A DNA stretch of 32,000 nt from the NCBI RefSeq assembly GCF_000012465.1, contig NC_007335.2, positions 1,200,001 to 1,232,000 on the forward strand, given 5' to 3'. The stretch comes from Prochlorococcus marinus str. NATL2A (lineage in GTDB: Bacteria; Cyanobacteriota; Cyanobacteriia; PCC-6307; Cyanobiaceae). The notes under the pieces were generated by a model. That model did not search any database and was not told the DNA's origin. It worked only from the letters and a program-made list of their open reading frames with translations. Below, piece after piece: positions 9,792 to 29,700 of the stretch (within the stretch, counting starts at the first letter, position 1; every line of letters begins with the position of its first letter). The position numbers and the translations under genes were made by a program.

Positions 9792-10433
9792 ATGGGTGCA
9801 CTATTTATTTTCATATTAATCTCAGTATCAGTAATTTCCGCCTTGCTTTTCTTCAATAAAGGGGAGAAAGCTCAAGAGATCAAAAGCACTCTTAAAAACA
9901 TATATGAAAATTTTAAAGAACTCTTCTCAAATTTTAAAAAGCTTTTTTTGATAGTTAAAGAGCTAATTCAATCAAAATTAGATCAAGGACCTACTCAGCT
10001 GAAAGATGAATCAACAGAGTCGCAACCTGAGGCAACTCCTGAACCTGAGGCAACTCCTGAACCTGAGGCAACTCCTGAACCTGAGGCAACTCCTGAACCT
10101 GAGGTAACGCCTGAACCTGAGGTAACGCCTGAACCTGAGGTAACGCCTGAACCTGAGGTAACGCCTGAACCTGAGGTAACGCCTGAACCTGAGGTAACGC
10201 CTGAACCTGAGGTAACGCCTGAACCTGAGGTAACGCCTGAACCTGAGGTAACGCCTGAACCTGAGGTAACGCCTGAACCTGAGGTAACGCCTGAACCTGA
10301 GGTAACGCCTGAACCTGAGGTAACGCCTGAACCTGAGGTAACGCCTGAACCTGAATTCATCCCAACTAGCGAATTAGAAAAAACTTCTGAAAATTCAATT
10401 GATGACGAAAATATTGATATAAAAACGGAGTAA
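9792..10433 (+). CDS. Membrane-anchored acidic Pro/Glu/Thr repeat protein, (PEPE[A/V]T)x18
   Basis: ATG start and an N-terminal TM segment ([19 protein letters not shown]). A predicted helical K/E-rich segment follows, then 110 aa of hexapeptide repeats and an acidic tail. A strong terminator lies 3' of the stop. Confidence 0.75.
10026..10355 (+). repeat. 18-bp perfect tandem repeat, about 18.3 copies in two homogeneous blocks
   Basis: cctgaggcaactcctgaa occurs 4 times, followed by cctgaggtaacgcctgaa 14 times. The count comes from the 110-aa repeat segment of the ORF. I saw no internal mismatches within either block. Confidence 0.95.
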
Positions 10434-10510: not shown

Positions 10511-11566
10511 CTAACTCTCAGTTGTTGCGAGAGAAGCTACTGATCCAACAACACGACGGAAATCAAAGCCCATGGCTCTAAGAGCATGCCAAATATGACC
10601 TTGAATAAAGAAAAATCCAAAGTAATAATGAACATTTGACAATGCTGCTCTAGTTGTATGACCTAAAAACGCAGTGCTATCTGAGACATCTCCCGTGTCT
10701 ACCCAATAAGGAGAAATTCCAAATTTCAAAGCTAAAGGCTCTCCATACCAGTCAATTGGATAAACAGTTGTATTTTGTGCGCACCAGAATGCAGCAACAA
10801 TTGCCATCCAACCAATACCAGCAAGAGACCAGGAGAGAACGGCTTCTGCTGAAAGCAATCCTTTACCTTTGAACTCAGTGTATTCGCCTAGTTGTTTTGT
10901 AGCGATGTGCCATGCACCACCACTTATTTGAACGAATGCTAAGAATGCATGACCGCTCATTACTTCTTCTAGGCTGTCAATGGTAAGGAAGTCGAACTGA
11001 TGCCCGTAAACCATTCCAAAATCACCATATCCAGGGAAGATTGTTCTGATTTCACCTATGGCTGGATCATAAATTCCATGCCACCTTGCCCACTCGACGA
11101 ACCAAATATTTGCAACCCCAAAGAAAATCAAGTGATGTCCAAGAATGAATGTCAAATTATCTGGATTGTCCCATTCAAGTTTGAATTTCTTGGTGGTAGG
11201 AATTGGACCATCTTTCAAGTCCGGGTCAAATAAGAGTGAATGAGCTAATCCAGCTGTTCCATATACAGCTGAAAAAATCAAATGGAAAATAGCAATTGTT
11301 GCTACACCAGCTCCGGTCCATACTCCTGCTTCATCAAAGCCGAGGCCAAGAGATGCTAGATGAGCAAGAAAAATGGAACTTTGATGTCCCATTGGTATTT
11401 CTGGGTTGTAGCGAGCAAGCTCCCAAAGGGTACTTCCACCAGCTGCAAAGCAAATCAGGCCTGTGTGTCCGATATGTGACCCTATGAATCGACCAGCGCG
11501 ATTGGTCACCACAGAATTGCCAACCCACCACCCGTAGGTGACGTCTGGGTTTCCGTAGGTCTGCAT
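10511..11566 (-). CDS. pcb: Chlorophyll a/b-binding light-harvesting protein Pcb (CP43/IsiA family), copy 1
   Basis: Contains MQTYGNPDVTYGWWVGN..., HIGHTGL, NPDNLTFILGHH and HYYFGFFFIQGHIWHALRAMGFDF. The ORF track starts at a GTG at 11605, but alignment with the four paralogs places the start at the ATG 13 codons downstream (11566). Confidence 0.93.
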   Translation of the reverse strand: MQTYGNPDVTYGWWVGNSVVTNRAGRFIGSHIGHTGLICFAAGGSTLWELARYNPEIPMGHQSSIFLAHLASLGLGFDEAGVWTGAGVATIAIFHLIFSAVYGTAGLAHSLLFDPDLKDGPIPTTKKFKLEWDNPDNLTFILGHHLIFFGVANIWFVEWARWHGIYDPAIGEIRTIFPGYGDFGMVYGHQFDFLTIDSLEEVMSGHAFLAFVQISGGAWHIATKQLGEYTEFKGKGLLSAEAVLSWSLAGIGWMAIVAAFWCAQNTTVYPIDWYGEPLALKFGISPYWVDTGDVSDSTAFLGHTTRAALSNVHYYFGFFFIQGHIWHALRAMGFDFRRVVGSVASLATTES

Positions 11567-11694
11567 AATTAAGGAATTAAAGTCGAAATTTTGGCTACCA
11601 TACACTTTTTGGAATTGTTTTTACCAGAATAGTTAGAGGTCTTTATAGGTCTCTCTCATTTTTTACCAAAAAAGCTCTATTTATTTAAAAATAG

Positions 11695-11728
11695 ACAAAA
11701 AAAATACCCCCCATAATAGAGGGGTATT
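11695..11728 (-). terminator. Intrinsic terminator of pcb copy 2
   Basis: The stem atacccc/ggggtat lies about 18 nt 3' of the stop. On the minus strand it is followed by a U-run (an A-run on the plus strand at about 11697-11704). Confidence 0.65.
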
Positions 11729-11745
11729 TTTGTTTTTTTTTTAAT

Positions 11746-12858
11746 CTATCTTGGAGCTCTTCCATTGAAACCAGCGCCTTCAACCCTGACTGTTGCGCCT
11801 TCAGTATTACCAATTGCTTCGGAAACTTTCTTGAAGTCAAATCCTAAAGCACGTAAAGCATGCCAGAAATGACCCTGTAAGAAGAAAAATCCAAAGTAAT
11901 AATGAACATTAACTAAAGCAGCCCTAGTTGTGTGACCAAAGAAAGCTGTTATGCCAGTGCTATCTGCTGTATCAATCCAATATGGAGCAACTGAGAACTG
12001 TAACTTCAAAGGCTCACCAAACCACTCAATGGGATAAACGGTTGTATTGGTAGCAGCCCAGAATGCTGCAACAATTGCCATCCAACCTATACCTGCAAGA
12101 GACCATGAAAGGACTGCCTCTGCAGAAAGCAATTCAGCTCCTTTGTACTTACTCCATTCACCAAGTCTCTTGTTTTCCCATTGAGTTGAACCTGCAACCA
12201 TATGAATAGTTGCTCCGGTCAATTCTGCAAAAGCAAGAAATGCATGTCCACCCATTACATCTTCGAGACTATCAATTCCGATGAAATCAAATTGACGATT
12301 CCATATCATCGTCAAATCAAGATTGTAATTGACCTGTCTAACCGAACCAATAGCTGGATCATATATGCCGTGGATTCTTGCCCATTCAACAAAGGCTATG
12401 CAAGCCATTCCAAAGAAGAATAAATGATGGCCCAGGATAAACGTCTGATTATCCGGATTATTCCATTCCAATTTAAACTTTCTAGCTCTTGGAACCTCAC
12501 TATCTGCAACATCAGCTTCAAAATAAACTGCATGCAATAAAGCACCACCTCCGTAAACCATTGACAAAACCAAGTGAACAATGGCTACGGCTGCTACACC
12601 AACACCAGTCCAAGCTCCAGCCTCGTCAAAACCTACGCCAAAGGCGGCAAGATGCCCCAAGAATAAGGAGCTTTGATGCCCCATAGGGATCTCTGGATTG
12701 TAGCGAGCAAGTTCCCAAAGGGTACTTCCTCCAGCCGCGAATGCGATCAAGCCTGTATGCCCAATATGGGAGGCTATGAATCGACCAGAACGACTTGTGA
12801 CCACAGAATTACCAGCCCACCACTCGTAAGTAACGTCTGGATTTCCATAGCTCTGCAT
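11746..12858 (-). CDS. pcb: Chlorophyll a/b-binding light-harvesting protein Pcb, copy 2 (extended C-terminal tail)
   Basis: MQSYGNPDVTYEWWAGN... with the same conserved core. At 370 aa it has the longest C-terminal tail of the five (...GNTEGATVRVEGAGFNGRAPR). Confidence 0.93.
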   Translation of the reverse strand: MQSYGNPDVTYEWWAGNSVVTSRSGRFIASHIGHTGLIAFAAGGSTLWELARYNPEIPMGHQSSLFLGHLAAFGVGFDEAGAWTGVGVAAVAIVHLVLSMVYGGGALLHAVYFEADVADSEVPRARKFKLEWNNPDNQTFILGHHLFFFGMACIAFVEWARIHGIYDPAIGSVRQVNYNLDLTMIWNRQFDFIGIDSLEDVMGGHAFLAFAELTGATIHMVAGSTQWENKRLGEWSKYKGAELLSAEAVLSWSLAGIGWMAIVAAFWAATNTTVYPIEWFGEPLKLQFSVAPYWIDTADSTGITAFFGHTTRAALVNVHYYFGFFFLQGHFWHALRALGFDFKKVSEAIGNTEGATVRVEGAGFNGRAPR

Positions 12859-13035
12859 AATGTCTAAGCGAATCAGGGAAATATGCGTGCAGATTACACT
12901 CTGTTCAATTGATATGTGCAGAATAGTTAAAGGTCGTTATGTTTGAAATTCTTTTTTCCGGATAATTAAGAGAGACGCAAAGTCTTTTATTAGCTTTATC
13001 AAATCAATGCTTCGAAAGAATTTATTCGACCAAGT

Positions 13036-13073
13036 AAAAAAAAACAAAAAAAAGAGAGGATTAAATCCTCTCT
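13036..13073 (-). terminator. Intrinsic terminator of pcb copy 3
   Basis: The stem agagagga-ttaaa-tcctctct is preceded on the plus strand by a long A-run. This reads as hairpin plus U-run on the minus strand, about 25 nt 3' of the stop at 13098. Confidence 0.75.
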
Positions 13074-13097
13074 TTTAAAAAACAAGTTTTTAATTGT

Positions 13098-14147
13098 TTA
13101 TTCGTAAAGCTGAGCAGGAAGAGGCTCCTTAAGAATTCTCTTAAAATCAAATCCCATAGCTCTTAAAGCATGCCATAGATGACCTTGAAGGAAGAAAAAT
13201 CCAAAGTAATAATGAACATTTGCTAGAGCCGCCCTAGTCGTATGACCAAAGAAAGCTGGACCTCCTGAAAGATCAACACTATCTATCCAATAAGGAGCAA
13301 TACCAAACTTCAAGATCAATGCTTCGCCATACCAAGCTTCTGGGTAAACGGTTGTGTTCTGTGCACACCAGAAAGCAGCAACAACAGCCATCCAACCAAG
13401 ACCTGCACAAGAGAAAGAAAGAATTGCTTCTGCAGAAAGAAGACCAGCTCCTTTGAACTTGGTATATTCACCAACTTGCTTAGTAGCGATATGGAAAGCT
13501 CCACCTGTTATTTCCAAGAAAGCCAAGAAAGCATGGCCTCCCAAAACATCTTCAAGACTATCAATAGCCAAGAAATCAAACTGATGGTTCCAAATACTGG
13601 TCAAGTTAAGGTTGTACTCAACTTGTCGAACAGCTCCTATAGCAGGATCATAAATTCCATGGATTCTTGCCCATTCAACGAACCAAATACATGCAACACC
13701 AAAGAAAAGTAAATGGTGACCAAGTATAAAAGTCTGATTATCTGGGTTGTCCCACTCAAGTTTGAACTTTCTTGCTTGAGGGACCTCTGAATCTTGCATA
13801 TCGCCAACGAATAGCACCGAGTGCAATAAGCCACCGGCTCCATAGACCATGGAAAGAACCAAATGTACGATTGCAATAGAGGCAACTCCTGCCCCTGTCC
13901 AAGCACCAGCCTCATCAAAGCCGATACCAATTGAAGCTAAATGAGCAAGAAAGATCGAACTCTGATGTCCCATTGGAATCTCAGGGTTGTATCTCGCTAG
14001 TTCCCAAAGGGTACTTCCACCTGCTGCAAAGGCTATTAAGCCAGTATGAGCAATGTGTGCAGCAATGAATTTACCTGATTTGTTTGTAACCCCAGCATTT
14101 CCAGCCCACCAACCATAGGTGACATCCGGGTTTCCGTAGGTCTGCAT
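13098..14147 (-). CDS. pcb: Chlorophyll a/b-binding light-harvesting protein Pcb, copy 3
   Basis: MQTYGNPDVTYGWWAGN... with a conserved Pcb core over the full 349 aa. Confidence 0.93.
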   Translation of the reverse strand: MQTYGNPDVTYGWWAGNAGVTNKSGKFIAAHIAHTGLIAFAAGGSTLWELARYNPEIPMGHQSSIFLAHLASIGIGFDEAGAWTGAGVASIAIVHLVLSMVYGAGGLLHSVLFVGDMQDSEVPQARKFKLEWDNPDNQTFILGHHLLFFGVACIWFVEWARIHGIYDPAIGAVRQVEYNLNLTSIWNHQFDFLAIDSLEDVLGGHAFLAFLEITGGAFHIATKQVGEYTKFKGAGLLSAEAILSFSCAGLGWMAVVAAFWCAQNTTVYPEAWYGEALILKFGIAPYWIDSVDLSGGPAFFGHTTRAALANVHYYFGFFFLQGHLWHALRAMGFDFKRILKEPLPAQLYE

Positions 14148-14324
14148 GATTTAAGTTTTTTGGCGTAATACGGTGAGCACACCTTACAGGCACCTGAATT
14201 CAAAAACTACCAATAGTCATAAGGCGTATAAAGAAGTAGTAAAGTTTTTTTTCTTCAAATTGGCTCAACCCCCAACTAAACTAGGTTTTCATGGAAATAC
14301 TCAAGAAAAATTTAAATATCAAAA

Positions 14325-14519
14325 ATGAAATCTGCTTTACAACTTGAATTACAAGACCTTCATGGACTTCCTTATGTAGCAACAATAATTTGGTTTGTTC
14401 TGCTTGGAGTTTCTCTTTTAGCTGTGGTTTTTTATCTTTTTCAGAAAAATTCACCATCCAAAAGAAAAGTTGATGAGGTTTCTCCCACTGAGAAGAAATC
14501 TCGTGCAAAAGGGTTTTAA
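14325..14519 (+). CDS. Hypothetical single-TM small protein inside the pcb array
   Basis: 64 aa with an ATG start, one TM segment (YVATIIWFVLLGVSLLAVVFYLF) and a basic C-terminal tail. There is no family assignment. Confidence 0.35.
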   Translation: MKSALQLELQDLHGLPYVATIIWFVLLGVSLLAVVFYLFQKNSPSKRKVDEVSPTEKKSRAKGF

Positions 14520-14634
14520 ATGACTAAGAAAATTTTGTTTTTCAATGTTAGTTCTCAAATTAATGTAATATCCTCAAACACGGGTTTGGCATAGTGGCCA
14601 CCTGGGTTAACTATAAAAACAATTTTTTTATTCA

Positions 14635-14841
14635 ATGATTGATTTTTCTCACCTTCTTGATTTTGCCACTCAGCTTCCACACCCATCAGATATTGGTTTA
14701 ATCAAACCATCCGGTGGATTTAATATAGCCGCAGCTCTTTGTGGACTTGGAGCAGTTTTTGGAGCGTCTCAATTCTTCTACTATTCTGATGATTCAAAAA
14801 GGATCGATCCTTGGGCTAAGCCTGACAACTACAAAAACTAA
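14635..14841 (+). CDS. Hypothetical single-TM small protein inside the pcb array
   Basis: 68 aa with an ATG start and a Gly/Ala-rich TM segment (FNIAAALCGLGAVFGASQFFYY). A strong hairpin terminator follows within about 35 nt. Confidence 0.45.
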   Translation: MIDFSHLLDFATQLPHPSDIGLIKPSGGFNIAAALCGLGAVFGASQFFYYSDDSKRIDPWAKPDNYKN

Positions 14842-14872
14842 AGAAAGTTAAAACCTCTTTAATTTTTTTCAA

Positions 14873-14911
14873 TAAAAAAAGAGTCTCGTCTTTTGACGAG
14901 ACTCTTTTTTA
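14873..14911. terminator. Bidirectional intrinsic terminator (small ORF on +, pcb copy 4 on -)
   Basis: aaaaaaa-gagtctcgtc-tttt-gacgagactc-tttttt forms a 10-bp stem with A- and T-runs on either side. Confidence 0.8.
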
Positions 14912-14931
14912 ATGCTGAAAGACTCAGAAAA

Positions 14932-16020
14932 TCAATCAGTTAGAGTAACTCTTGCTCCATCAAGATTACTAATTGCATCAGTAACCTTTTTGAAATCAAA
15001 GCCTAGAGCACGTATTGCATGCCAAAGGTGTCCTTGAATAAAGAAGAAACCAAGATAGTAATGAACATTCGCAAGCCAAGCTCTTGAAGTATGACCACTA
15101 ACGACACCAGTCATATCAGCAGTATCAATCCAATATGGAGAGATTCCAAACTTAAGAGCTAATGTTTCTCCGTACCAAGCCTCTGGATAAACAGTTGTAT
15201 TGGTTGCACACCAGAAAGCGGCAATAATTGCCATCCAACCAATACCAGCAAGAGACCAGGAAAGAACTGCTTCAGCAGAAAGAATATTCTTCCCTTTGAA
15301 TTCTGTGTATTCTCCAGTCTGCTTCGTAGCGATATGGAAAGCACCACCTGTGATCTCAACAAATGCTAAGAATGCATGACCACCCATAACATCCTCCAGA
15401 CTATCAATAGCCAAGAAATCAAACTGATGATTCCAAATGTTGGTCAAGTTTAAGTTGTACTCGACTTGTCGAACAGCTCCTATTGCAGGATCGTAAATCC
15501 CATGTATTCGAGCCCACTCAACAAACCAAATACATGCAACACCAAAGAAAATCAAATGGTGACCAAGAATAAAAGTCTGATTATCTGGATTATCCCATTC
15601 AAGCTTGTATCTTGCTGCCTGACGATGTTCAGGACGATCATCAGCAAACAAACCTGAACTATTTTGGGTATCTTCGCTAAAAATCAGAGAGTGCAATAGA
15701 CCTGCACCCGCATAAACCATTGAACAAATCAGATGGAATACTCCGATAAAAGCAATTGATGTTCCGTCGAATACTGTTCCAGTTGGATCAAATCCAATAC
15801 CAATAGAAGCAAGGTGTGGGATGCTCACCATTCCTTGGTGTCCCATTGGAATATCTGGGTTGTATCTAGCGAGCTCCCAAAGTGTGTTGGCACCAGCTGC
15901 GAAACAAATCAATCCTGTATGAGCAACATGCGAGCCAATAAATCGGCTTGACTTATTTGTTACGACAGAATTACCAACCCACCACCCGTAGGTGACGTCT
16001 GGGTTTCCGTAGGACTGCAT
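14932..16020 (-). CDS. pcb: Chlorophyll a/b-binding light-harvesting protein Pcb, copy 4 (divergent, with loop insertion)
   Basis: MQSYGNPDVTYGWWVGN... with the conserved core. It has a divergent segment (MGHQGMVSIPHLASIGIGFDPTGTVFDGTS). It also has a 9-residue longer loop before the (F/Y)KLEW motif (SEDTQNSSGLFADDRPEHRQAARYKLEW). Confidence 0.93.
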   Translation of the reverse strand: MQSYGNPDVTYGWWVGNSVVTNKSSRFIGSHVAHTGLICFAAGANTLWELARYNPDIPMGHQGMVSIPHLASIGIGFDPTGTVFDGTSIAFIGVFHLICSMVYAGAGLLHSLIFSEDTQNSSGLFADDRPEHRQAARYKLEWDNPDNQTFILGHHLIFFGVACIWFVEWARIHGIYDPAIGAVRQVEYNLNLTNIWNHQFDFLAIDSLEDVMGGHAFLAFVEITGGAFHIATKQTGEYTEFKGKNILSAEAVLSWSLAGIGWMAIIAAFWCATNTTVYPEAWYGETLALKFGISPYWIDTADMTGVVSGHTSRAWLANVHYYLGFFFIQGHLWHAIRALGFDFKKVTDAISNLDGARVTLTD

Positions 16021-16213
16021 AATTGAGGAAATTGAAGTCGAAATTCGACCTACCTTACATTTAGTGCAATAAATTTGCTTGAAATCGTAAAAGGTCTTTA
16101 TTTAATGCACAAAAATAATCAATAGAAGAGCTTTAATTATTCATTGATTTTGCTTACAAAACTAGTATCAAAAAGGATTTGAGAATCCTAGTTAAATAGC
16201 AGTCAATATTTTA

Positions 16214-16244
16214 ATAAAAAAAGCCCCGCAAAAATTACGGGGCT
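16214..16244 (-). terminator. Intrinsic terminator of pcb copy 5
   Basis: The stem agccccg-caaaaatta-cggggct is preceded on the plus strand by an A-run, giving hairpin plus U-run on the minus strand. It lies about 29 nt 3' of the stop at 16273. Confidence 0.8.
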
Positions 16245-16272
16245 TCAGAGATTATCCAATCAATTGAATTAG

Positions 16273-17337
16273 TTAGTCATTAAGAGTGATTTGTGCCCTA
16301 TCTAAACCAGCTACAGCATTTGTAACTCTCCTAAAGTCAAAGCCTAATGCACGAATAGCGTGCCATAAATGACCTTGTAAGAAGAAGAATCCAAAATAAT
16401 AATGGACATTTGTTAAAGCAGCTCTTGTGGTGTGACCTGCTAGTGCAGTGCTCTCACTTACCTCTACAGTATCGATCCAATAGGGAGAAATTCCAAATTT
16501 CAAAGCTAAAGGCTCTCCAAACCAAGGTTCAGGATAAACAGTTGTATTTGTTGCGCACCAGAATGCTGCGACAATCGCCATCCAACCAATACCTGCCAAT
16601 GAGAAAGATAAAACAGCTTCGGCAGAAAGGATCCCAGCTCCTTTGAATTCTGTGTATTCTCCTACCTGCTTAGTTGCGATATGGAAAGCACCACCAGTTA
16701 TCTCAACAAATGCTAAAAACGCATGGCCGCCCAAAACATCTTCAAGATTATCTATAGCTAAGAAATCAAACTGATGGTTCCAAATATTGGTCAAATTAAG
16801 GTTGTACTCAACTTGTCGAACAGCTCCTATTGCTGGGTCATAAATCCCGTGAATTCTGGCCCATTCAACAAAAGCAATACAAGCCACCCCAAAGAAAATA
16901 AGATGGTGACCCAAAATAAATGTCAAATTATCGGGATTGTCCCATTCAAGCTTGAATTTTTGAGTAGTAGGTCCTGGCCCATCAGCCAAATCCCCATCAA
17001 AGAGCAGAGAGTGAGAAAGAGCTCCTCCTGCATAAACAAGAGAAGCAATAATATGGACAATTGCTACTGAAGCAACATTCGCTCCAGTCCAAACACCTGC
17101 ATCATCAAATCCAATTCCAATAGATGCAAGATGAGCGAGAAAGATAGAGCTTTGGTGCCCCATGGCTATAGAAGGATCAAACCTAGCTAGCTCCCAAAGA
17201 GTGCTAGCTCCTGCAGCAAATGAAATTAGGCCAGTATGACCAGCATGGGCTGCAATGAACTTTCCAGCGCGGTTGGTAACCCTTGAATTACCAGCCCACC
17301 ACCCGTAGGTGACATCTGGATTTCCATAGGTCTGCAT
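16273..17337 (-). CDS. pcb: Chlorophyll a/b-binding light-harvesting protein Pcb, copy 5
   Basis: MQTYGNPDVTYGWWAGN... with a conserved Pcb core over 354 aa. Confidence 0.93.
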   Translation of the reverse strand: MQTYGNPDVTYGWWAGNSRVTNRAGKFIAAHAGHTGLISFAAGASTLWELARFDPSIAMGHQSSIFLAHLASIGIGFDDAGVWTGANVASVAIVHIIASLVYAGGALSHSLLFDGDLADGPGPTTQKFKLEWDNPDNLTFILGHHLIFFGVACIAFVEWARIHGIYDPAIGAVRQVEYNLNLTNIWNHQFDFLAIDNLEDVLGGHAFLAFVEITGGAFHIATKQVGEYTEFKGAGILSAEAVLSFSLAGIGWMAIVAAFWCATNTTVYPEPWFGEPLALKFGISPYWIDTVEVSESTALAGHTTRAALTNVHYYFGFFFLQGHLWHAIRALGFDFRRVTNAVAGLDRAQITLND

Positions 17338-17793
17338 ATAAAACAGGGGGAATATATATTTTACAGACTACAAGTTAGTAGACTTTTTAACTATAAAAAA
17401 CCAAAACAAACAAGCATTGATTAATAATCAAACATCATTTTATACTCGCATATAAGTAAAACTTAACAGTAAAATTAGTGACTAATTATACAAAAAGTCA
17501 TTATAAGTTTAGTGTCTCGAAATACAAAAAAAGATAAGTTCTACTTAACTATTGATACCGTTTTTTTTTTGTTGTTGGAAGAGCGCAAGCACTCTTCCGA
17601 TGTTGACAGAGAAACGAACTTCGACTTCAATTCCTATCAACAAAGACTGTCATAACAAAAATCAATCATAAGTGTGAGAACAAATAATTCTTTTCATACA
17701 TCCAAAACAAATTGATTAACAATGAAGTTTTATAAATCCAAGAAAATTCTTAGGGATATACGTACCATTACCAACGAAAATCTCTTCTAAGAT

Positions 17794-18063
17794 TTGCTCA
17801 GTTTCATTGCAACACAAATCGTACTTAAAAGGCTAACTTCAGCTGAGGTTGATCGCATTATCGAAATGGCCTGGGAAGACAGGACACCTTTTGATGCTAT
17901 CGATTTTCAATTCAATCTCAAAGAGAAAGAAGTTATTAATTTAATGCGATCTAATTTAAAAACATCTTCTTTTAAAATGTGGAGAAAAAGGGTTACTGGA
18001 AGGAAACTTAAGCATGGCTTCCCTGACAAGAGGACAAGGTTCAAGTCAGCAAATCAAAAGTGA
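17794..18063 (+). CDS. DUF2805 / TIGR03643-family small protein
   Basis: [61 protein letters not shown] matches the family core as I recall it (MAWEDRTPF...F.L.E.EV..LMR......F..WRKRV.GR..KH). The TTG start is uncertain. Confidence 0.7.
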
Positions 18064-18191
18064 AATTCAAATTGATAAAAAATTGTCCGATTTGCTTGAG
18101 AGATTTTCAATGGAGAAAAAAATGGGCTAAAGACTGGGATAATGTCATTTACTGTTCAGAAAGATGTAGAAGAAGGAAAAATCAAAATTAA
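18060..18191 (+). CDS. DUF2256-type small zinc-ribbon protein (43 aa, not in ORF track)
   Basis: A GTG at 18060 overlaps the upstream TGA (GTGA). The translation is (M)[42 protein letters not shown], ending at TAA 18189-18191. The C-x2-C...F.WRKKW...W..V.YCS..C pattern is the DUF2256 signature. Confidence 0.7.
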
Positions 18192-18290
18192 CCATGTTGA
18201 GTTTTTCGCACTTAAAAAAGAAACCAGTTATTTTAGGAAATTAACTTCTTAATTTTTTTTGAGAAGTAACAAATTTATTAATCGACTAAA

Positions 18291-19781
18291 TTGAGAAAGA
18301 TTTTCCTGATTTTTCCAAATCAATTATTCAAAATAAAAAAACAATTTACTGACGTTAATCATATTGCTCTAATTCAAGACAACTTATTTTTTGGTTGTGA
18401 TTCTCAATGGCAACAAAAGTTTCATTGTCAAAAAATAATTTTCCACAAAGCTACAATGGACTCTTACGAAGAAGATCTCAAATCTCAGGGTTTCAATGTA
18501 ATTTATTTACAACATAAGAGAGAAAGCAGAACGGAAGATAATCTCAATTATCTATTAGAAAAAGGTTTTAATTATTTCATCACTTATGAAGCATTTGATT
18601 GGTCGCTAGAAAAAAGAATTAAGGATTTCTCTTTGAAAAATAATATAAAGTTGGAAATAAGAAAAAATGATATGTTTTTAACTTGTCCAGATATATCTGA
18701 AGAAATACTTAATCAAAAAAAAATTTATGGAATGCAGAAATTTTATAAGATTCAAAGAAAAAGCCTAAATATACTTATCGAAAAAGATGGCTCGCCAACA
18801 GGGGGGGCATGGAATTTTGACAACATGAATAGAAAGAAGCTCCCAAATTCAATTGAAGTTCCAAAAATACCAACTATAAAAACAAATAGATTACTAAACA
18901 AAGCGAAGAAAGAAGTTTCTACAAATTATAAAGATTATTATGGTAGAATAGCAAACTTTAATTATCCATTGTCTCATAAAGATGCTGAAGAATGGTTAGA
19001 TAATTTTTTAATTGAAAGATTTAATTTATTTGGAGATTATGAAGATGCAATACATTCAAATCATAGGACACTTTGGCATAGTGTTCTTTCTCCATTAATT
19101 AATTCCGGATTACTTACTCCGAGACAAATAATAGATAAATCATGGGAGTTTTATCAATCAAACAATATTGGGATTAATTCCTATGAAGGATTTGTTAGAC
19201 AAATTATTGGCTGGCGTGAATTTATCCTATTAATGTATAAACGAAATAGTTTAGAACTAAGAAATGGAAATTTCTGGGATTTTGAGGACAAACCAATACC
19301 CTTAAGTTTTTACACTGGTCAAACAGGAATAAGGCCTTTAGATGACTCAATAAGAAATATTTTAGAGACAGGTTATGCACATCATATAGAAAGACTAATG
19401 ATAGTTGGAAATTTAATGCTTCTATGCAGATTCCATCCAAATCAAGTATACAAATGGTTTATGGAATTATTTATAGATTCATATGATTGGGTTATGGTTC
19501 CAAATGTTTATGGAATGAGTCAATTTTCAGATGGAGGGCTATTTACAACCAAACCATATATATCTGGCTCTAATTATATTCGAAAAATGTCTAATTATAA
19601 ATCTGAAGATTGGTGCTCAACTTGGGATAGTCTTTTTTGGACATTTATAGATGATTATAAAAATAAGTTCAAGGACCAATATCGTTTATCTATGATTTTA
19701 AGGACTTTAGAAAAAATGGACCCTAATAAAAAATTGAACCACAGACGCAATGCTAATGAGTTCATGTCTAAACTAAGTTAA
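18291..19781 (+). CDS. Cryptochrome/photolyase-family protein, COG3046 / FeS-BCP ((6-4) photolyase-related) type, lacking Fe-S cysteines
   Basis: The 496-aa protein contains GGAWNFDNMNRKKLP and ETGYAHHIERLMIVGNLMLL. It also contains FIDSYDWVMVPNVYGMSQFSDGG.FTTKPYISGSNYIRKMSNY. These segments are typical of the PhrB/CryB-like branch. TTG start. Confidence 0.85.
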   Translation: MRKIFLIFPNQLFKIKKQFTDVNHIALIQDNLFFGCDSQWQQKFHCQKIIFHKATMDSYEEDLKSQGFNVIYLQHKRESRTEDNLNYLLEKGFNYFITYEAFDWSLEKRIKDFSLKNNIKLEIRKNDMFLTCPDISEEILNQKKIYGMQKFYKIQRKSLNILIEKDGSPTGGAWNFDNMNRKKLPNSIEVPKIPTIKTNRLLNKAKKEVSTNYKDYYGRIANFNYPLSHKDAEEWLDNFLIERFNLFGDYEDAIHSNHRTLWHSVLSPLINSGLLTPRQIIDKSWEFYQSNNIGINSYEGFVRQIIGWREFILLMYKRNSLELRNGNFWDFEDKPIPLSFYTGQTGIRPLDDSIRNILETGYAHHIERLMIVGNLMLLCRFHPNQVYKWFMELFIDSYDWVMVPNVYGMSQFSDGGLFTTKPYISGSNYIRKMSNYKSEDWCSTWDSLFWTFIDDYKNKFKDQYRLSMILRTLEKMDPNKKLNHRRNANEFMSKLS

Positions 19782-19905
19782 TAATTTCAACTCAGATATT
19801 TAGAACAACAAATTTCTATAAACTTTGTCTAGGTGTTGTTTTTACTCCAAAAGAGCGCTCTCGAAAAGCAGTTAATTAACTATAATTATGATTTGATTAT
19901 TCAGA

Positions 19906-20355
19906 GTGAAGCTGAAAGTTGGTGATCAGATTCCATCATTTTCTTTGAAAGATCAAAAAGGGAATATCAGAACATCAAATAATCTGAAAAAGTCTCTGGT
20001 TTTGTTTTTTTACCCGAAAGATGATACACCTGGTTGCACTATCGAAGCTTGTGGCTTCCGAGACAAATATGATCTTTTCAAAATTCTAGGTGCTGAGGTG
20101 TGGGGAATAAGTAATGGTAGTACTCAAAGTCATCTAGGATTTGCAAATAAAAATAAACTTCAATATCCATTACTTTGCGACCAAAACAATATTCTTAGAA
20201 ATCAATTTGGAGTGCCGAAAAAACTAGGATTCATAGAAGGAAGAGTAACCTACATCATAAATTCTGAAGGAGTAATAAAACATATATTTGAAGACCTTCT
20301 TAATGGTCCAGCTCATATAAAAGAAGCTATAAAAGCATTAAAAAAACTTCAATAA
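19906..20355 (+). CDS. bcp: Peroxiredoxin, Bcp/PrxQ type
   Basis: LVLFFYPKDDTPGCTIEACGFRD contains the peroxidatic Cys in the PxxxTxxC context plus a second Cys five residues later, as in Bcp/PrxQ. 149 aa with a GTG start. Confidence 0.85.
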   Translation: MKLKVGDQIPSFSLKDQKGNIRTSNNLKKSLVLFFYPKDDTPGCTIEACGFRDKYDLFKILGAEVWGISNGSTQSHLGFANKNKLQYPLLCDQNNILRNQFGVPKKLGFIEGRVTYIINSEGVIKHIFEDLLNGPAHIKEAIKALKKLQ

Positions 20356-20371
20356 CAAATTTAATAATCAT

Positions 20372-21487
20372 ATGAATATTTTTGATGAGGCTAATGATTT
20401 ATTAGATAATTTCATTTTCGATCACCTTAATTCATACCATCAACTAAGAAATTACGATTATGGGATCGAAAACAGGACTAATGTTTCTCAGATTTCTAAA
20501 TATACATCTCATAGAATCCTTTACGAATTTGACATAATTGAAAAATTGAAAAAGTATGATAAGAAACAAAAGTACACTGATGAAATCCTTTGGAGGATCT
20601 ACTGGAAGGGTTATCTTGAAAATTACAAATCCATATGGTTTGAATATATAAATTTCAAAGAAAACTCAAATAATTCATACTTAATTAGTTCTGCGATGAA
20701 TGGTAAGACAGGTATAGATTGCTTTGATACATGGATAGAGGAGCTTAAAGAAAATAACTATTTGCATAATCACGCAAGGATGTGGTTCGCAAGTATATGG
20801 ATTTTCACTCTGGGACTTCCATGGCAATTAGGAGCGAGGCTTTTCATGAAACATCTACTAGATGGAGATGCTGCATCAAACACCCTTAGCTGGAGATGGG
20901 TGGCTGGTATGCACACGAATAAGAAGCCTTACTTAGCATCTAAAGAAAACATCAATAAGTACACAGTTAATCGATTTAGAGATACTCCAATCAGCATCTC
21001 GAGCAAAATTAATATCATAAAACATAGTCAACATCAATCGAACAAACTTCCAGTTCAAAGAAGTTTCCCTAATAGTAATATTCTAATAATGTTTGATAAT
21101 GATATGGATATCATGAACAGATCAACGTTATTTAATTCATACTCAAAAGTTTATATATTGCGTAATATACCCATAAATAATGAATTTGAGCTAAGTGAAA
21201 ACGTGAGTCAATTCAAACGAGGTCTAATTGATAAAATAAATAAGTTAATCCCAAACTCAAAAGTATTAAAATTAACTGACCTAGGAATTAATTTGTCTGG
21301 TCACAGTATAATTGATGTTATCTACCCAGGAATTGGGCATAACCTAGATTCAATAAATAAATTTGCCAATCAAAATCAAATCATTATTAATTATATATAT
21401 AGAGAAGAAGATCTTAAATGTTGGAATTATACAAATTCAGGATTTTACAAATTTAAAACTTTATTTTATAGACTGAATATGATCTAA
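20372..21487 (+). CDS. Photolyase/cryptochrome-superfamily protein with N-terminal FAD-binding domain and an uncharacterised C-terminal domain (NewPHL-like topology)
   Basis: Residues about 20-190 carry FAD_binding_7-type motifs: TNVSQISKYTSHRIL, ILWRIYWKGYLE and TGIDCFDTWIEELKENNYLHNHARMWFASIWIF. The same stretch also carries LLDGDAASNTLSWRWVAGMHTNKKPY. No N-terminal alpha/beta photolyase domain precedes them. About 180 aa of unrelated sequence follows. Confidence 0.7.
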   Translation: MNIFDEANDLLDNFIFDHLNSYHQLRNYDYGIENRTNVSQISKYTSHRILYEFDIIEKLKKYDKKQKYTDEILWRIYWKGYLENYKSIWFEYINFKENSNNSYLISSAMNGKTGIDCFDTWIEELKENNYLHNHARMWFASIWIFTLGLPWQLGARLFMKHLLDGDAASNTLSWRWVAGMHTNKKPYLASKENINKYTVNRFRDTPISISSKINIIKHSQHQSNKLPVQRSFPNSNILIMFDNDMDIMNRSTLFNSYSKVYILRNIPINNEFELSENVSQFKRGLIDKINKLIPNSKVLKLTDLGINLSGHSIIDVIYPGIGHNLDSINKFANQNQIIINYIYREEDLKCWNYTNSGFYKFKTLFYRLNMI

Positions 21488-21588
21488 AATCTTATCAATT
21501 CATATTAAATCAATGCAAACATGCTTATCTACATCGACCACAATTAAAACAAATCATAATTATAGTAAAACAACATATTGAAATAATT

Positions 21589-22515
21589 ATGGTTAGATTA
21601 AATGAAATCAAGATGCAAGATGGAAAAATATTCTTAATCACTGGAGCCAATAGCGGTCTTGGTTATGAAACATCAAAATTCCTTCTAGAAAGAGGGGCAA
21701 CAGTAATCATGTGTTGCAGAGACTTGCTCAAAGGGGAGAAAGCCAAAAAAGAACTTTTAAAATTTAAGTTTTCTGGAAAAATTGAACTAGTTGAATTAGA
21801 TTTATCCGATTTAATTAATGTTAAAAAATTTGCTGAATCAATAAAAAATACATTTGATCACTTAGATGTCTTAATCAATAATGCTGGAATAATGGCTCCC
21901 CCAAAGACTCTTAGCAAGCAAGGTTTCGAAATACAGTTTGCTGTTAATCATCTTGCACACATGTTTTTAACCTTAGAGTTACTACCCATGCTTGAAGAAA
22001 AAAATAATTCTAGGGTTGTCACAGTAACCTCAGGCGTTCAATATTTTGGAAAAATTCAATGGGAGGATCTACAAGGAAATCTTAAATATGATAGGTGGGC
22101 TTCATATGCGCAGAGCAAGCTTGCAAACGTAATGTTTGGATTGGAACTCGATTCAAAACTTAAGGAAACCAATTCAAAAACTTCTTCACTACTAGCTCAT
22201 CCAGGATTTGCACGTACAAATTTACAGCCAAAGTCTGTTGAGGCTAATCAATCATGGCAAGAAGAACTTGCTTATAAATTGATGGATCCCATGTTTCAAA
22301 GCGCGAAAATGGGAGCATTACCTCAAATAACTGCCGCCACATTAACTAGCGCTTCGGGAGGAGAACAATATGGACCTAGGTTCAACTTCAGAGGGTTCCC
22401 GAAAATCTGTAGAAATGCTCCAAAAGCATTAAATCAAACTTCAAGAAAAAAATTGTGGGACATAAGCGAAAAGCTCATAAAAGATTTTGATACCCTCTCA
22501 AAACAAAGTAAGTAA
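21589..22515 (+). CDS. Short-chain dehydrogenase/reductase (SDR), classical type
   Basis: It has a cofactor motif (ITGANSGLGYET), an NNAG motif (LINNAGIM) and a catalytic Y-x3-K (YAQSKLAN). 308 aa. Confidence 0.85.
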   Translation: MVRLNEIKMQDGKIFLITGANSGLGYETSKFLLERGATVIMCCRDLLKGEKAKKELLKFKFSGKIELVELDLSDLINVKKFAESIKNTFDHLDVLINNAGIMAPPKTLSKQGFEIQFAVNHLAHMFLTLELLPMLEEKNNSRVVTVTSGVQYFGKIQWEDLQGNLKYDRWASYAQSKLANVMFGLELDSKLKETNSKTSSLLAHPGFARTNLQPKSVEANQSWQEELAYKLMDPMFQSAKMGALPQITAATLTSASGGEQYGPRFNFRGFPKICRNAPKALNQTSRKKLWDISEKLIKDFDTLSKQSK

Positions 22516-23091
22516 TTCTTCTCCTTTTTCACATATTTCTTGTTGTGAAGGGCATTCTGTTTTTCCAGTCCAATGAATTAAGCCTTTTCTAATTGAACAA
22601 TTACATTTATCCTCACCAGTTAATTCATTGAGTTCTTTCCCTGTCCAAGGAGATGCCTTATCACTAAGCATTATTTCTTTCAATCGATCAGAAAACGACT
22701 TATTTAAACCGTCAAAAACTTGCACAGACTGAAGGAAATCATCAAACGCCTCGGATTTATCGTCATAGTTTCTTTTTTCTAATTCTTTATCAAAAACAGC
22801 TCTCATAAATTTTGTACAATTAATTGCTTCAGAATTAGTGAATGGTTTTAACTTTTGACTTAAGTATTCACGATTACTGACTATTGATTCAAGTGTAAAT
22901 AACATTTTTTCTAAATTTTTTATCTTATTAACTGAAGACAAATCAATATTTTGGTTATCATTATCAGATAAGGACTTAGTAACTAAATCAGTAATATGCT
23001 CGGTTAGGCTTTTGCCAGACATCATTGCCTGTCGCTTAACTTTAATTAATAAGTCTTTTGAGATTTTTATATTAAACTGGCTTTTAGTCAT
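22498..23091 (-). CDS. Hypothetical protein with N-terminal ribbon-helix-helix-like segment
   Basis: The N-terminus FNIKISKDLLIKVKRQAMMSGKSLTEHITDLVTKSL fits the strand-helix-helix pattern of CopG/Arc/MetJ-type RHH domains. The C-terminal half is Cys-containing (GEDKCNCSIRKGLIHWTGKTECPSQQEIC) and I do not recognise it. Its 3' end overlaps the convergent SDR gene by 18 nt. Confidence 0.5.
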   Translation of the reverse strand: MTKSQFNIKISKDLLIKVKRQAMMSGKSLTEHITDLVTKSLSDNDNQNIDLSSVNKIKNLEKMLFTLESIVSNREYLSQKLKPFTNSEAINCTKFMRAVFDKELEKRNYDDKSEAFDDFLQSVQVFDGLNKSFSDRLKEIMLSDKASPWTGKELNELTGEDKCNCSIRKGLIHWTGKTECPSQQEICEKGEELLTLF

Positions 23092-26783: not shown

Positions 26784-29700
26784 TTAGAACAAACCAGTTA
26801 CCTCACTAAATAAAGCCTTATTCTCTAACGACTCAGCAAAACCTAATAACAATTCTCCTCTATTTTCTTGCCCACTGTCTAACTGCTCAACCCAATAATC
26901 ATAACCACCTTGATCTGCATCTCTACCAAGAATATTTTTATATAGATTGTTCACATACGTTCCTGTGTCAACATCAGCTCCATAAGTAGATTTAAACTCT
27001 TCAGAACCTAAGAAAGAATCAGCTACTTGACGGTTACTATTTTCACCAGACGAGTTTTTATCAATCCAATATTCAAGTCCATCAGAATCAGGGAATCTTG
27101 CAAAAGCAGCGTTGTAAACCCTAAACATTTGTCCCGTTGAATCATCTTTCGATTTCACCTGATCAAACGTCTCTTTAATATCGCTAATTCCACTAAAAGA
27201 TTTATCATTAAACTCCAGTTTTGGAACGCCAGTAATATCATCGAATCCATCCTCAGTCTTAACTTCTATTGTTCCATCTTCTCTTTTAAAGAATTTAAAG
27301 TCTTTACTATCACCCGTATATGTTTTAACAACATCTAGTTTAGAAACGTCTACCTTCTGATCGGCGAATTGAATATATTCGACATTCTTTAAAGTGTCAT
27401 TTCCATCATTCAGTCCCTCTCTTTGATCTTGAATCGCAACTGTATCTTTTGTTCGATCAAACTTATAATCAGCAAAATTTCCGGCATAGAACGCAACATC
27501 TTCTCCTTCTCCTCCATCAATAAAGTCTGACCCCAAGCCACCAAAAATCTTGTCAGAAGTCTCGCCTCCTTCCAATCTGTCATCACCGTCATCTTTACTC
27601 TTTACTAGCGACGCCCAATGGCTTGTCGAATCCAATTCAGCTCCATCTCCTTGGGGTTTCTTTAAATCATCAATTTCTTGCCATGGATAAGCGACTTCAC
27701 TAATGGGTTTTTTATCTAAAGCAACTGCCGTTGGATCTAGATTCGCTAATGAAATCACAGCAAGTGCATCTGCTTCTACTGCTTCGGCATGAGCTCTACC
27801 TTCATCAGTCAATGCCCAATCAGCAACACTTAGTCCTGCAGCTAATGCTGCTTCTTCAGGTATCAGACTCACTTCATTTGAAGTAAGAAGGGAATTTGCT
27901 AAGTTTGCTGCCTCTTTAATGGGATCCGTAGTCGCTCCCCAGTAACCCGCTGTTTTATTCGCCTCATTATCTAGTGACGTATCAAAATGCTTGGCATCTG
28001 TCACCCAAGCACCATTAGTAGCCTGATACCCTCCTGCTGATTTGATTTCTTCCGCTGTAATCCCTTCTGGAATTGCAGGCTTTACTTCTCCTTCTGGTGC
28101 TTTCCATCCATCTTTCTCAAAATCTTCTGATTTCACCCATTGGCCAAATGGATCCCAAAAACCTCCATCAGTTTTAATATCCGTCGCTGCAGGTGGTGCC
28201 CAGGCAACAGTTTGAGCATCCGCGCTTCCTTCTCCAAAATGAGCTACGGAAGAAACCCATTTTTTATCGGCATCAAAATATCCACCGTTCTTTTTAATTT
28301 CATCGGTTTCAGGAACAGTTCCCGTGTTATTCAAAAACTCCTTGGATGTGACCCACTTACCATTGGGGTTTCTAAAACCACCATCTTTTTTAATCAATTC
28401 ATCTGGAGGGACAGTCCATCCAGCTGATGATGGATCTTTGAAATAATCGTCTTCTTTAACAAACGTTCCATCAGATTTTGTAAAGCCTCCTGATTTAGCA
28501 ATTGCATCTGCTTCTGGTGGAGTCCAAACAGTCGTTTCTGCTGGTTTATCTCCAGTTGTTCGTTTGCCAAAGAAAGAATCTGCTGTCATCCATTCACCAT
28601 CAGGTCCCCGTAGACCGCCTTCCCAGCGAATGATCTCGTCTTTTGGAAGCACCCAATTTTTAACTGCTGCCGCAGCATCAGGTGCCATTTTTGCTAATTG
28701 ATCCGGAGTAACCGCAGCAAATGATTCTGGATCAAGTTCTTTTAAGGTCTGACCTTTAAATCCAGCCATTGCTTCTGCGTCAAACGCTGCAATGTGCGTT
28801 GGATCAAATCCCTCCATCGCCAAGGGATCAAACGCTGCAATCTGATCTTTTCCAAAGCCTGCTACTGCAGTTGGGGCAAACGCTGCAAAATGATCTTTAT
28901 CAAAACCGGCCATCGCCATTGGATCAAACGCCGCAGCATGCGTGTGATCAAATCCAGCAACTGCCATTGGATCAAACGCCGCAGCATGCGTGTGATCAAA
29001 TCCAGCAACTGCCATTGGGTCAAACGCCGCAGCATGCGTGTGATCAAATCCAGCAACTGCCATTGGATCAAAGGCTGCAAAATGCGTGTGATCAAATCCA
29101 GCAACTGCCATTGGGTCAAACGCAGCAACATGCTCGGGATCAAATCCAGCGACTGCCATTGGGTCAAAGGCTGCAAAATGCGTGTGATCAAATCCAGCAA
29201 CTGCCATTGGGTCAAACGCCGCAGCATGCGTGTGATCAAATCCAGCAACTGCCATTGGATCAAAGGCTGCAAAATGCGTGTGATCAAATCCAGCAACTGC
29301 CATTGGGTCAAACGCCGCAGCATGCGTGTGATCAAATCCAGCAACTGCCATTGGATCAAAGGCTGCAAAATGCGTGTGATCAAATCCAGCAACTGCCATT
29401 GGGTCAAACGCGGCAACATGATCGGGATCAAATCCAGCGACTGCCATTGGGTCAAACGCAGCAACATGCTCGGGATCAAATCCAGCCATTGCCATTGGAT
29501 CAAAGGCTGCAAAATGCGTGTGATCAAACCCTGCAACTGCCATCGGGTCAAAGGCTGCAAAATGCGTATGATCGAACCCTGCAACTGCCATCGGGTCAAA
29601 CGCAGCAACATGCTCGGGATCAAAACCAGCCATGGCCATTGGATCAAAAGCAGCAACATGGTCTTTACCTAGACCTGCCATGTAGCCGTAATCAATCGCC

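Follow-up and report, generated by a model that had tools for sequence, protein, structure and literature searches.

The 32,000-nt stretch of DNA analysed here (positions 1,200,001 to 1,232,000 of NC_007335.2; hereafter the window) belongs to Prochlorococcus marinus str. NATL2A, a low-light (LLI) type Prochlorococcus with a GC content of ~30%. At 17794-22515 it carries six genes on the plus strand that code, in order, for two small proteins of the families DUF2805 and DUF2256, the photolyase homologue Phr2, a Bcp-type thiol peroxidase, a second photolyase-like protein (Phr7) and a short-chain dehydrogenase/reductase (SDR). A first-pass annotation, made from the sequence without database searches, had read this group as a dedicated module for the repair of UV and photo-oxidative damage. 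Its description of the genes is borne out: all six are present as plus-strand open reading frames (ORFs) where it placed them, the spacing read from the sequence is a 4-nt GTGA overlap between DUF2805 and DUF2256 followed by gaps of 99, 124, 16 and 101 nt, and Pfam and NCBIfam confirm all six family names; the fifth protein does have its domains in inverted order. Table 1 lists the genes together with the non-coding features discussed below.

Table 1. Genes of the six-gene cluster and sequence features upstream of and within it (window coordinates)
Feature	Position	Strand	Remarks
DUF2805/TIGR03643	17794-18063	+	89 aa, TTG start
DUF2256	18060-18191	+	43 aa, GTG start overlapping the DUF2805 stop codon (GTGA)
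phr2, DPRP + FAD-binding domain	18291-19781	+	496 aa
bcp, Bcp/PrxQ-type thiol peroxidase	19906-20355	+	149 aa, GTG start
phr7/NewPHL	20372-21487	+	371 aa
SDR, PRK06197 subfamily	21589-22515	+	308 aa, ATG start
Near-invariant block of ~150 nt	17575-17725	+ (strand inferred)	from alignments of 7 LLI loci
Hairpin GGAAGAG-N8-CTCTTCC	17577-17598		in upstream block
Promoter-like TTGACA, 17-nt spacer, TTCAAT	17603-17608 and 17626-17631		in upstream block
18-mer CGAACTTCGACTTCAATT	17615-17632		in upstream block
15-mer AGGGATATACGTACC	17752-17766	+	27 nt before DUF2805 start codon; candidate operator/leader element
Promoter-like TTCGCA, 18-nt spacer, TATTTT	18205-18234	+	DUF2256-phr2 spacer; 6 LLI loci aligned
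Block TTGTCTAGGTGTTGTT (TTGTCTAGGTGyTGTT)	19825-19840	+	phr2-bcp spacer; candidate internal promoter/operator
-10-like TATAAT	19881-19886	+	19 nt upstream of bcp GTG
ATAATTATAGT with -10-like TATAGT (21561-21566)	21550-21566	+	22 nt before SDR ATG; candidate internal promoter

Phr2 matches DPRP (PF04244; 183 bits, E 1.1e-53) at residues 6-225 and, narrowly, the flavin adenine dinucleotide (FAD)-binding domain FAD_binding_7 at residues 339-401 (27.1 bits, cut-off 27). Over residues ~42-495 it resembles the solved FeS-BCP structures, PhrB (4DJA) and CryB (3ZXS) among them, with E-values ranging from 7.8e-82 (9hnk) to 1.6e-58 (3zxs). Alignment to 9hnk places a Pro at C349, shows the segment with C437-x2-C440 to be deleted, and leaves the equivalent of C453 alone in place. 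Three of the four [4Fe-4S] cysteines are likewise missing from all LLI Phr2 homologues, which puts the protein in the Fe-S-less FeS-BCP/CryPro subgroup typified by PromaPL. Haney et al. (PMC9426592) equate Phr2 with PromaPL, a (6-4) photolyase of the FeS-BCP clade without an Fe-S cluster, and report Phr2 and Phr7 from all high-light (HL) and LLI Prochlorococcus. In vitro, PromaPL repairs (6-4) photoproducts weakly, at 0.012 per min as against 405 per min for PhrB, and when produced alone it shows very poor expression, FAD loading and activity (bioRxiv 10.1101/366252). On sequence grounds, we assign the window protein as a (6-4) photolyase of the FeS-BCP/CryPro family, a kind that has been published. 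It shares with PromaPL the DPRP and FAD-binding domains, the homology to FeS-BCPs and the loss of three of four cysteines, but the characterised protein (WP_011132061) comes from another Prochlorococcus, whereas that of the window is an LLI protein known from its sequence. Across the loci that we compared (L001-L273), 27 FeS-BCP genes are without and 26 with the cysteine ligands (n=53), and both kinds are present in Flavobacteriia and in other lineages; loss of the Fe-S cluster is thus frequent and is not confined to cyanobacteria.

Phr7 has a single Pfam domain, FAD_binding_7, and this lies towards the N-terminus (residues 71-188). Residues 7-188 align to positions ~211-400 of class I/DASH photolyase models with no alpha/beta antenna domain in front, and the C-terminal portion or Z-domain (residues ~190-371, ~180 aa) is without a Pfam match. 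NewPHL, described as a cyclobutane pyrimidine dimer (CPD) photolyase specific for single-stranded DNA (ssDNA), has its catalytic domain first and its Z-domain last, the latter being defined by a length of ~150 aa, a conserved Trp and the motif GFF (Emmerich et al. 2020, PMC7736829). The Z-domain of that family is an alpha/beta fold similar to the antenna domain, which gives a reversed bilobal architecture. Phr7 and NewPHL are the same according to Haney et al. (PMC9426592), and Prochlorococcus orthologues have already been named in both papers. In the window protein, W351, G357 and F358 (motif SGFYKF) are conserved at 90% or more in 27 homologues. W174 and W151 are invariant in the homologue alignment, and we take them to correspond to W382 and W359 of E. 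coli photolyase, the proximal and medial electron-transfer tryptophans. The AlphaFold model, of low confidence (pLDDT 60.9), is all-helical in its first half and has five beta-alpha units at residues 237-369; Foldseek relates the Z-domain to photolyases and to Rossmann-like PPAT, though weakly and in no case at E <= 0.001. We accordingly place the 371-aa protein, by its domain layout and motifs, in the published Phr7/NewPHL family of CPD photolyases for ssDNA: the N-terminal catalytic FAD domain, the Pfam-less C-terminus, the Trp pair and the C-terminal Trp with GF[Y/F] are all shared. It differs from NewPHL in reading GFY and not GFF, and the members studied biochemically are from Dinoroseobacter and Methylobacterium.

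The two remaining enzymes are assigned by family models and motifs. Bcp matches AhpC-TSA (PF00578; 112 bits, E 3e-32) and has the active site TPGC-x4-C (DDTPGCTIEAC), its resolving Cys standing five residues after the peroxidatic Cys; because it misses the NCBIfam equivalog cut-offs (104 vs 140 and 89 vs 260), it is assigned at family level only. The SDR is an adh_short protein that passes the model for the PRK06197 subfamily (NF004846; 294.8 bits vs 268), and its motifs TGxxxGxG (ITGANSGLG) and YxxxK (YAQSK) are those of a classical SDR. Converging on its gene from the minus strand, with an overlap of 18 nt, is an ORF for 197 aa (22498-23091) that matches nothing in Pfam or NCBIfam; it is 72-82% conserved in several LLI loci, and in L002 other genes occupy its place.

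What can be said of the two small proteins at the head of the cluster? The first-pass annotation held that neither family has an assigned function, and our literature search agrees, having found no functional paper on DUF2805, on DUF2256 or on this cluster. The DUF2805 protein is a clear member of its family (Pfam 112.3 bits vs 22.5; TIGR03643 115.4 vs 66.55), in which the core R..MAWEDRT.F ... WR.R is invariant. Searches yielded 1,331 cluster representatives at E <= 0.001, and among the 150 listed all are short, stand-alone proteins; in an aligned subset, identity to the window protein is 44-70% across phyla. No sequence match was found in the PDB. The AlphaFold model (pLDDT 82), of good confidence in its core, has five helices and, after them, a basic tail (...RFKS) that is disordered, and the best fold and Pfam matches are to sigma-70 region 4 and other helix-turn-helix (HTH) domains (Foldseek E 1.9; Pfam HTH E 0.003), all below threshold. 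The model is thus suggestive of an HTH-like domain with a basic tail.

DUF2256 (62.2 bits, Pfam cut-off 25) has four cysteines, C9-x2-C12 and C32-x3-C36, that are invariant in the family alignment, as is the core F.WRKKW..W..YCS. The family belongs to the TRASH clan of Pfam (PMC4047054), and the cysteine pattern identifies the protein as a four-cysteine zinc ribbon of that clan. It shares the clan and a short C-x2-C ... C-x3-C ribbon with YacG, to which it has a weak match (E 0.0077, below the YacG cut-off), but GyrB is the target of YacG and DUF2256 has a core of its own. The only genuine fusion that we saw joins DUF2256 to DUF3253 on a metagenome contig with a GC content of 0.74 (L147, 975-1394); long apparent fusions on other high-GC contigs were rejected as stop-to-stop artefacts. 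We also considered whether DUF2256 stands in for the lost Fe-S cluster of FeS-BCPs. This was rejected, as the FeS-BCP genes that have DUF2256 within 300 nt comprise 15 Fe-S-less and 8 Fe-S-containing ones, each kind being spread over several lineages.

The six genes occur in identical order in seven related LLI loci (L001, L002, L003, L164, L084, L085 and L087), of which the last three are metagenome contigs and L087 could be followed only as far as the contig end. Protein identities are 58-93%. In the window, five tandem pcb antenna genes (PF00421) on the minus strand (10511-17337), a mark of low-light Prochlorococcus, lie upstream of the cluster. The cluster follows the same array in L001 (from a complete Prochlorococcus genome), in L002 and L003, and in L164. 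Downstream genes vary by strain, with psbA or TPR genes in some and transglutaminase and ATP-grasp genes in others. The arrangement is therefore no chance juxtaposition inside its lineage. It is specific to that lineage, however, and not genus-wide. In strain MED4 the Phr2 orthologue is PMM0425, which has no clear diel pattern, while the protein consisting only of the FAD domain is PMM1360, distant from PMM0425 and peaking at noon like phrA (PMC3441193). A low-GC contig that is probably from a high-light-clade Prochlorococcus (L103) has the order lepA, opp permease, trmH, DUF2805, DUF2256, Phr2 and cyanobacterial-type rsmB; its Phr2 is 52% identical to that of the window, and bcp, phr7 and the SDR gene are absent. 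This three-gene group indicates that the conserved core is DUF2805-DUF2256-phr2, to which bcp-phr7 and the SDR were appended in LLI strains. A further locus, L168, was considered as the high-light Prochlorococcus version of phr7 and dropped, its neighbours (HtpX of PRK05457 type, DsrC and a CshA-like helicase) being non-diagnostic of the organism; it serves solely as an example of a stand-alone NewPHL gene.

Conservation extends to the non-coding sequence. The intergenic region between pcb and DUF2805 measures 456 nt and contains the near-invariant block of Table 1, which we regard, from its motifs, as the candidate promoter and leader of a DUF2805 unit, both strand and role being inferred; RNAalifold slightly favours the minus strand. 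The 18-mer of this block, CGAAYTTCGACTTCAATT, has a second copy on the minus strand (16030-16047), in sense orientation within the leader of the pcb gene at 14932-16020, where it stands 10 nt upstream of the ATG in every LLI locus. As a leader, promoter or small RNA, the block could tie antenna to photorepair genes. No known RNA element was found upstream of DUF2805: nowhere in the window did an Rfam match reach the gathering threshold, and relaxing the limit to E 10 for 17300-18350 brought up nothing but noise. The 15-mer AGGGATATACGTACC, nearer to the DUF2805 start, is identical in six of seven LLI loci and differs by one substitution in L165.

Inside the cluster, the spacers fall into two kinds. 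Those of 99, 124 and 101 nt contain promoter-like motifs that are invariant or nearly so in six LLI loci, well over the neutral level, since only 27% of four-fold degenerate sites in the flanking genes are invariant across the same loci. The 16-nt spacer between bcp and phr7 varies in both length and sequence, and the stop-start overlap of DUF2805 and DUF2256 is retained in most LLI loci. On the 3' side of TTCGCA-N18-TATTTT, before phr2, there is an AT-rich hairpin with partly conserved arms. An exact 17-mer, ACTATAATTATGATTTG, occurs at 19879-19895 on the plus strand and inverted at 21550-21566 on the minus strand, thus bracketing bcp-phr7 (2 matches vs 0.06 expected) and overlapping the -10-like boxes of bcp and the SDR gene; no exact copy is retained in the other LLI loci. 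A shared operator, a remnant of an insertion and chance are all possible readings. Terminal repeats of an inserted bcp-phr7 cassette were considered and rejected, since the pair is significant in the window but is not kept elsewhere in LLI loci.

How far are the small proteins tied to photolyases outside Prochlorococcus? We compared 80 loci anchored on DUF2805 from GTDB species, mostly Bacteroidota and cyanobacteria, and 80 metagenome loci anchored on DUF2256; neighbours were scored with hidden Markov models built from the loci, and Pfam and NCBIfam searches of representatives served to check the family names. Counting the loci whose 1-kb flanks are complete, we found a photolyase-family gene within that distance of DUF2805 in 33 of 74 and of DUF2256 in 26 of 50. 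Within 3 kb of DUF2805 (n=64) we counted photolyase genes in 28 loci, SDR in 22, thiol peroxidase in 16, and folE and TspO in 13 each. The only recurrent neighbours of DUF2256 are FeS-BCPs, classical photolyases (several of which pass the Cry-DASH model), DUF2805, NewPHL and SDR. GC content spans 0.27-0.74 in the DUF2256-anchored loci and 0.28-0.72 in those linked to a photolyase. The linked genes are arranged in many ways, often with stop/start overlaps: DUF2256 precedes DASH or stands on either side of FeS-BCP, the two small genes adjoin in either order, and DUF2805 precedes NewPHL, their codons overlapping, or follows AlkB.

The last of these arrangements was seen in five Flavobacteriia loci (L004, L036, L050, L054 and L073), where a gene for an AlkB-type 2-oxoglutarate-Fe(II) oxygenase is directly upstream of DUF2805. 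AlkB acts in DNA alkylation repair, so that photolyases are not the only type of DNA-repair enzyme with which this family is associated.

Both small proteins also occur on putatively viral contigs of IMG/VR. Several of those with DUF2805 are ~173-178 kb in length (e.g. L227, gene at 6010-6243) with no photolyase close by, the neighbours being an HNH endonuclease, a phage-type GroEL, a flavodoxin-like protein, a 304-aa protein and a NUDIX hydrolase. Neither DUF2805 nor DUF2256 has a match in 50,697 GenBank phage records, and a phage origin of the small genes is not supported.

Starting from the observed gene identities and order, their conservation among LLI loci and the recurrent linkage across phyla, we consider the best explanation, and a fairly probable one, to be that adjacent photoprotection units have come together in LLI Prochlorococcus, with the small proteins serving as accessory or DNA-binding factors. 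Four units would lie side by side, namely DUF2805-DUF2256, phr2, bcp-phr7 and the SDR gene, with read-through between them possible; this division is favoured by the conserved motifs in the three long spacers, the variable bcp-phr7 spacer, the dispersal of the genes in MED4 and the three-gene group of L103. Each unit would have its own promoter, and light or UV would co-regulate them in place of a single mRNA. Phr2 would carry out photorepair of (6-4) lesions without an Fe-S cluster, Phr7 photorepair of cyclobutane dimers in ssDNA, and Bcp would remove peroxide under the same light stress. DUF2256, with its face of invariant Trp, Arg and Lys, would be made in step with the photolyase-family enzymes as an accessory partner that contacts DNA or protein, and DUF2805 would bind DNA, whether to regulate genes or to direct repair enzymes to their targets. 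Such roles would fit the very low expression, FAD loading and activity of PromaPL made on its own.

Several points weigh against this explanation. First, the boundaries proposed between the units are drawn solely from conserved motifs, and neither intrinsic terminators nor stable spacer structures were found inside the cluster (z-scores ~0), so that read-through into one mRNA is possible. Second, the HTH matches of DUF2805 are non-significant, and a confident fold assignment was dropped. Third, the association with photolyases, to which the first-pass annotation had appealed, is real across genomes but partial: about half of the DUF2805 and of the DUF2256 loci have no photolyase nearby, as do most of the 77 IMG/VR contigs that carry DUF2805 (L213-L289), and in cyanobacteria other than Prochlorococcus DUF2805 adjoins a photolyase gene in only one of 18 loci, the other 17 being unlinked. 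The function of the small proteins can therefore have no strict dependence on an adjacent photolyase. Finally, many of the linked loci are from Flavobacteriaceae and share an arrangement inherited from one ancestor, so that independent events are fewer than the counts suggest.

A more specific proposal is that DUF2256, as a zinc-ribbon subunit, and DUF2805, as an HTH-type DNA-binding factor, are dedicated accessory factors of the photolyases outside class I (FeS-BCP, Cry-DASH and NewPHL), which would depend on them to find lesions, to fold or to be fully active. We put this forward tentatively, as an idea with perhaps a modest chance of being right. If true, it would explain why recombinant PromaPL, produced without them, is poorly expressed, poorly loaded with FAD and ~30,000-fold slower than PhrB.

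Alternatively, the six genes may form one operon, a UV and photo-oxidative repair module expressed from a single promoter upstream of DUF2805, much as the first-pass annotation had it. The genes share a strand and no gap exceeds 124 nt, the interior of the cluster is free of terminator-like sites and the spacers of stable structures, the order is kept in LLI relatives, and the conserved upstream block contains the strong promoter-like TTGACA-N17-TTCAAT. A single promoter is nevertheless difficult to reconcile with promoter-like motifs that are conserved in all three long spacers, with MED4 orthologues that are dispersed and differently expressed, with the occurrence of DUF2805-DUF2256-phr2 alone in L103, or with marine Synechococcus, where DUF2805 lies away from photolyases. 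We regard the single operon as unlikely. The notion of a single dedicated and conserved module is at odds with the different diel patterns of the separated MED4 genes, the three genes of L103, the one linked locus in 18 from other cyanobacteria and the promoter-like motifs of the spacers.

It has also to be asked whether DUF2805, possibly together with DUF2256, is simply a transcription factor for the photolyase and peroxidase genes that binds motifs in the spacers. The HTH-like helices and basic tail would suit such a role, as would the position of DUF2805 at the start of the cluster, and candidate operators are at hand in the conserved AGGGATATACGTACC and TTGTCTAGGTGTTGTT and in ACTATAATTATGATTTG, which stands before bcp and, inverted, before the SDR gene. 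Repressors and activators see their operators change between lineages, and the 44-70% identity between DUF2805 of cyanobacteria and of Bacteroidota, unusually high for a protein of this type, therefore counts against the proposal; moreover, one core operator motif was not found in the non-Prochlorococcus loci examined, and the exact 17-mer is not kept even in other LLI loci. On balance, a dedicated transcription factor seems to us improbable.

Lastly, the cluster could be an accident of genome streamlining beside a variable region, the small proteins having general roles that are independent of photolyases; downstream content does vary among LLI strains, roughly half of the loci of either small protein lack an adjacent photolyase, DUF2805 is found on putative large phage contigs without photolyases, and a metagenome correlation study placed it with translation-related domains (PMC3597751). 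We think this very unlikely, given that the recurrent neighbours of DUF2256 in the 80-locus metagenome sample are limited to photolyase-family genes, DUF2805 and SDR, and that the linkage recurs in many arrangements and GC backgrounds, often with stop/start overlaps. Adjacency in ~45-50% of loci is, in addition, far above the chance expectation of roughly 1% or less, a rough estimate, not computed, that assumes few photolyase genes per multi-megabase genome and a distance of 1 kb from a random site.

The preferred explanation, of adjacent photoprotection units with small accessory or DNA-binding proteins, matters chiefly for what it implies about the latter. Marine picocyanobacteria owe most of their UV tolerance to photoreactivation (PMC9426592), and yet the FeS-BCP enzyme of Prochlorococcus has hardly any activity in vitro. 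In cyanobacteria, Bacteroidota and other bacteria, two very small and highly conserved proteins recur beside genes of the photolyase family and often overlap them. If these proteins are partners or regulators, a missing component would be added to the textbook picture of repair by one enzyme, and both DUF families would gain a role. As a gathering of photoprotection genes the cluster is ordinary; its value is as a compact place in which to test the small-protein idea. The upstream block is of interest too, in that 17575-17725, by sharing its 18-mer with the pcb leader, could bring photorepair and light-harvesting under one light-responsive control.

Two further features of the window lie on either side. 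Just upstream of the pcb array, an 18-nt unit, AACCTGAGGTAACGCCTG, is repeated in tandem at 10024-10354 (18.4 copies, 99% matches) within an ORF (9792-10433) for a would-be acidic hexapeptide-repeat protein. On the minus strand at 26784-31853 there is a repetitive ORF of 1,689 aa with DUF4214, ALTTAQ and RTX-type repeats, in a region where GC content is 45-49% as against ~30% in the rest of the window; this shift points to a giant surface protein that either has a composition of its own or is of foreign origin.

How does the cluster compare with known systems? An analogous system is a large co-directional cluster in Flavobacteriaceae (L006, L010, L021, L030, L031, L040, L056 and others), with the order TetR, ABC1 kinase, flavin reductase, NmrA/DUF2867, DUF2256, Cry-DASH, FeS-BCP, a 142-aa protein, DUF2805, folE or SDR, a 74-aa protein, GPx, TspO, a 155-aa protein and a class I-type photolyase. 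The conserved proteins of 142, 74 and 155 aa are without a Pfam family. Common to this cluster and that of the window are DUF2256, DUF2805, FeS-BCP, an SDR, a thiol peroxidase and co-directional orientation. The flavobacterial cluster differs, however, in having GPx and not Bcp, DASH and not NewPHL as the ssDNA photolyase, and an SDR only distantly related to that of the window, and in its additional genes (folE, TspO, NmrA/DUF2867, AlkB, flavin reductase, TetR and ABC1). GPx and an SDR were also seen in two high-GC metagenome loci. In Rhodobacter, the sigmaE-ChrR regulon includes photolyase and CryB-type FeS-BCP genes and genes for oxidative stress. A similar gene theme has been described for the singlet-oxygen response of Rhodobacter (PMC7074977), and in Pseudomonas the light-induced LitR/PplR regulon comprises photolyase, SDR, pterin synthesis (folE) and oxidative-stress enzymes, with a small hypothetical gene preceding, and co-transcribed with, cryB (PMC9758184). 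LitR with LOV, and sigmaE/ChrR, are known regulators with proven co-induction of their targets, whereas the cluster of the window holds no such regulator gene. Neighbouring genes for FeS-BCP and a NewPHL-like protein have, in turn, been noted in the literature for a lake Nitrospira. Set beside these systems, the cluster of the window is a further photoprotection gene grouping, built of published enzymes.

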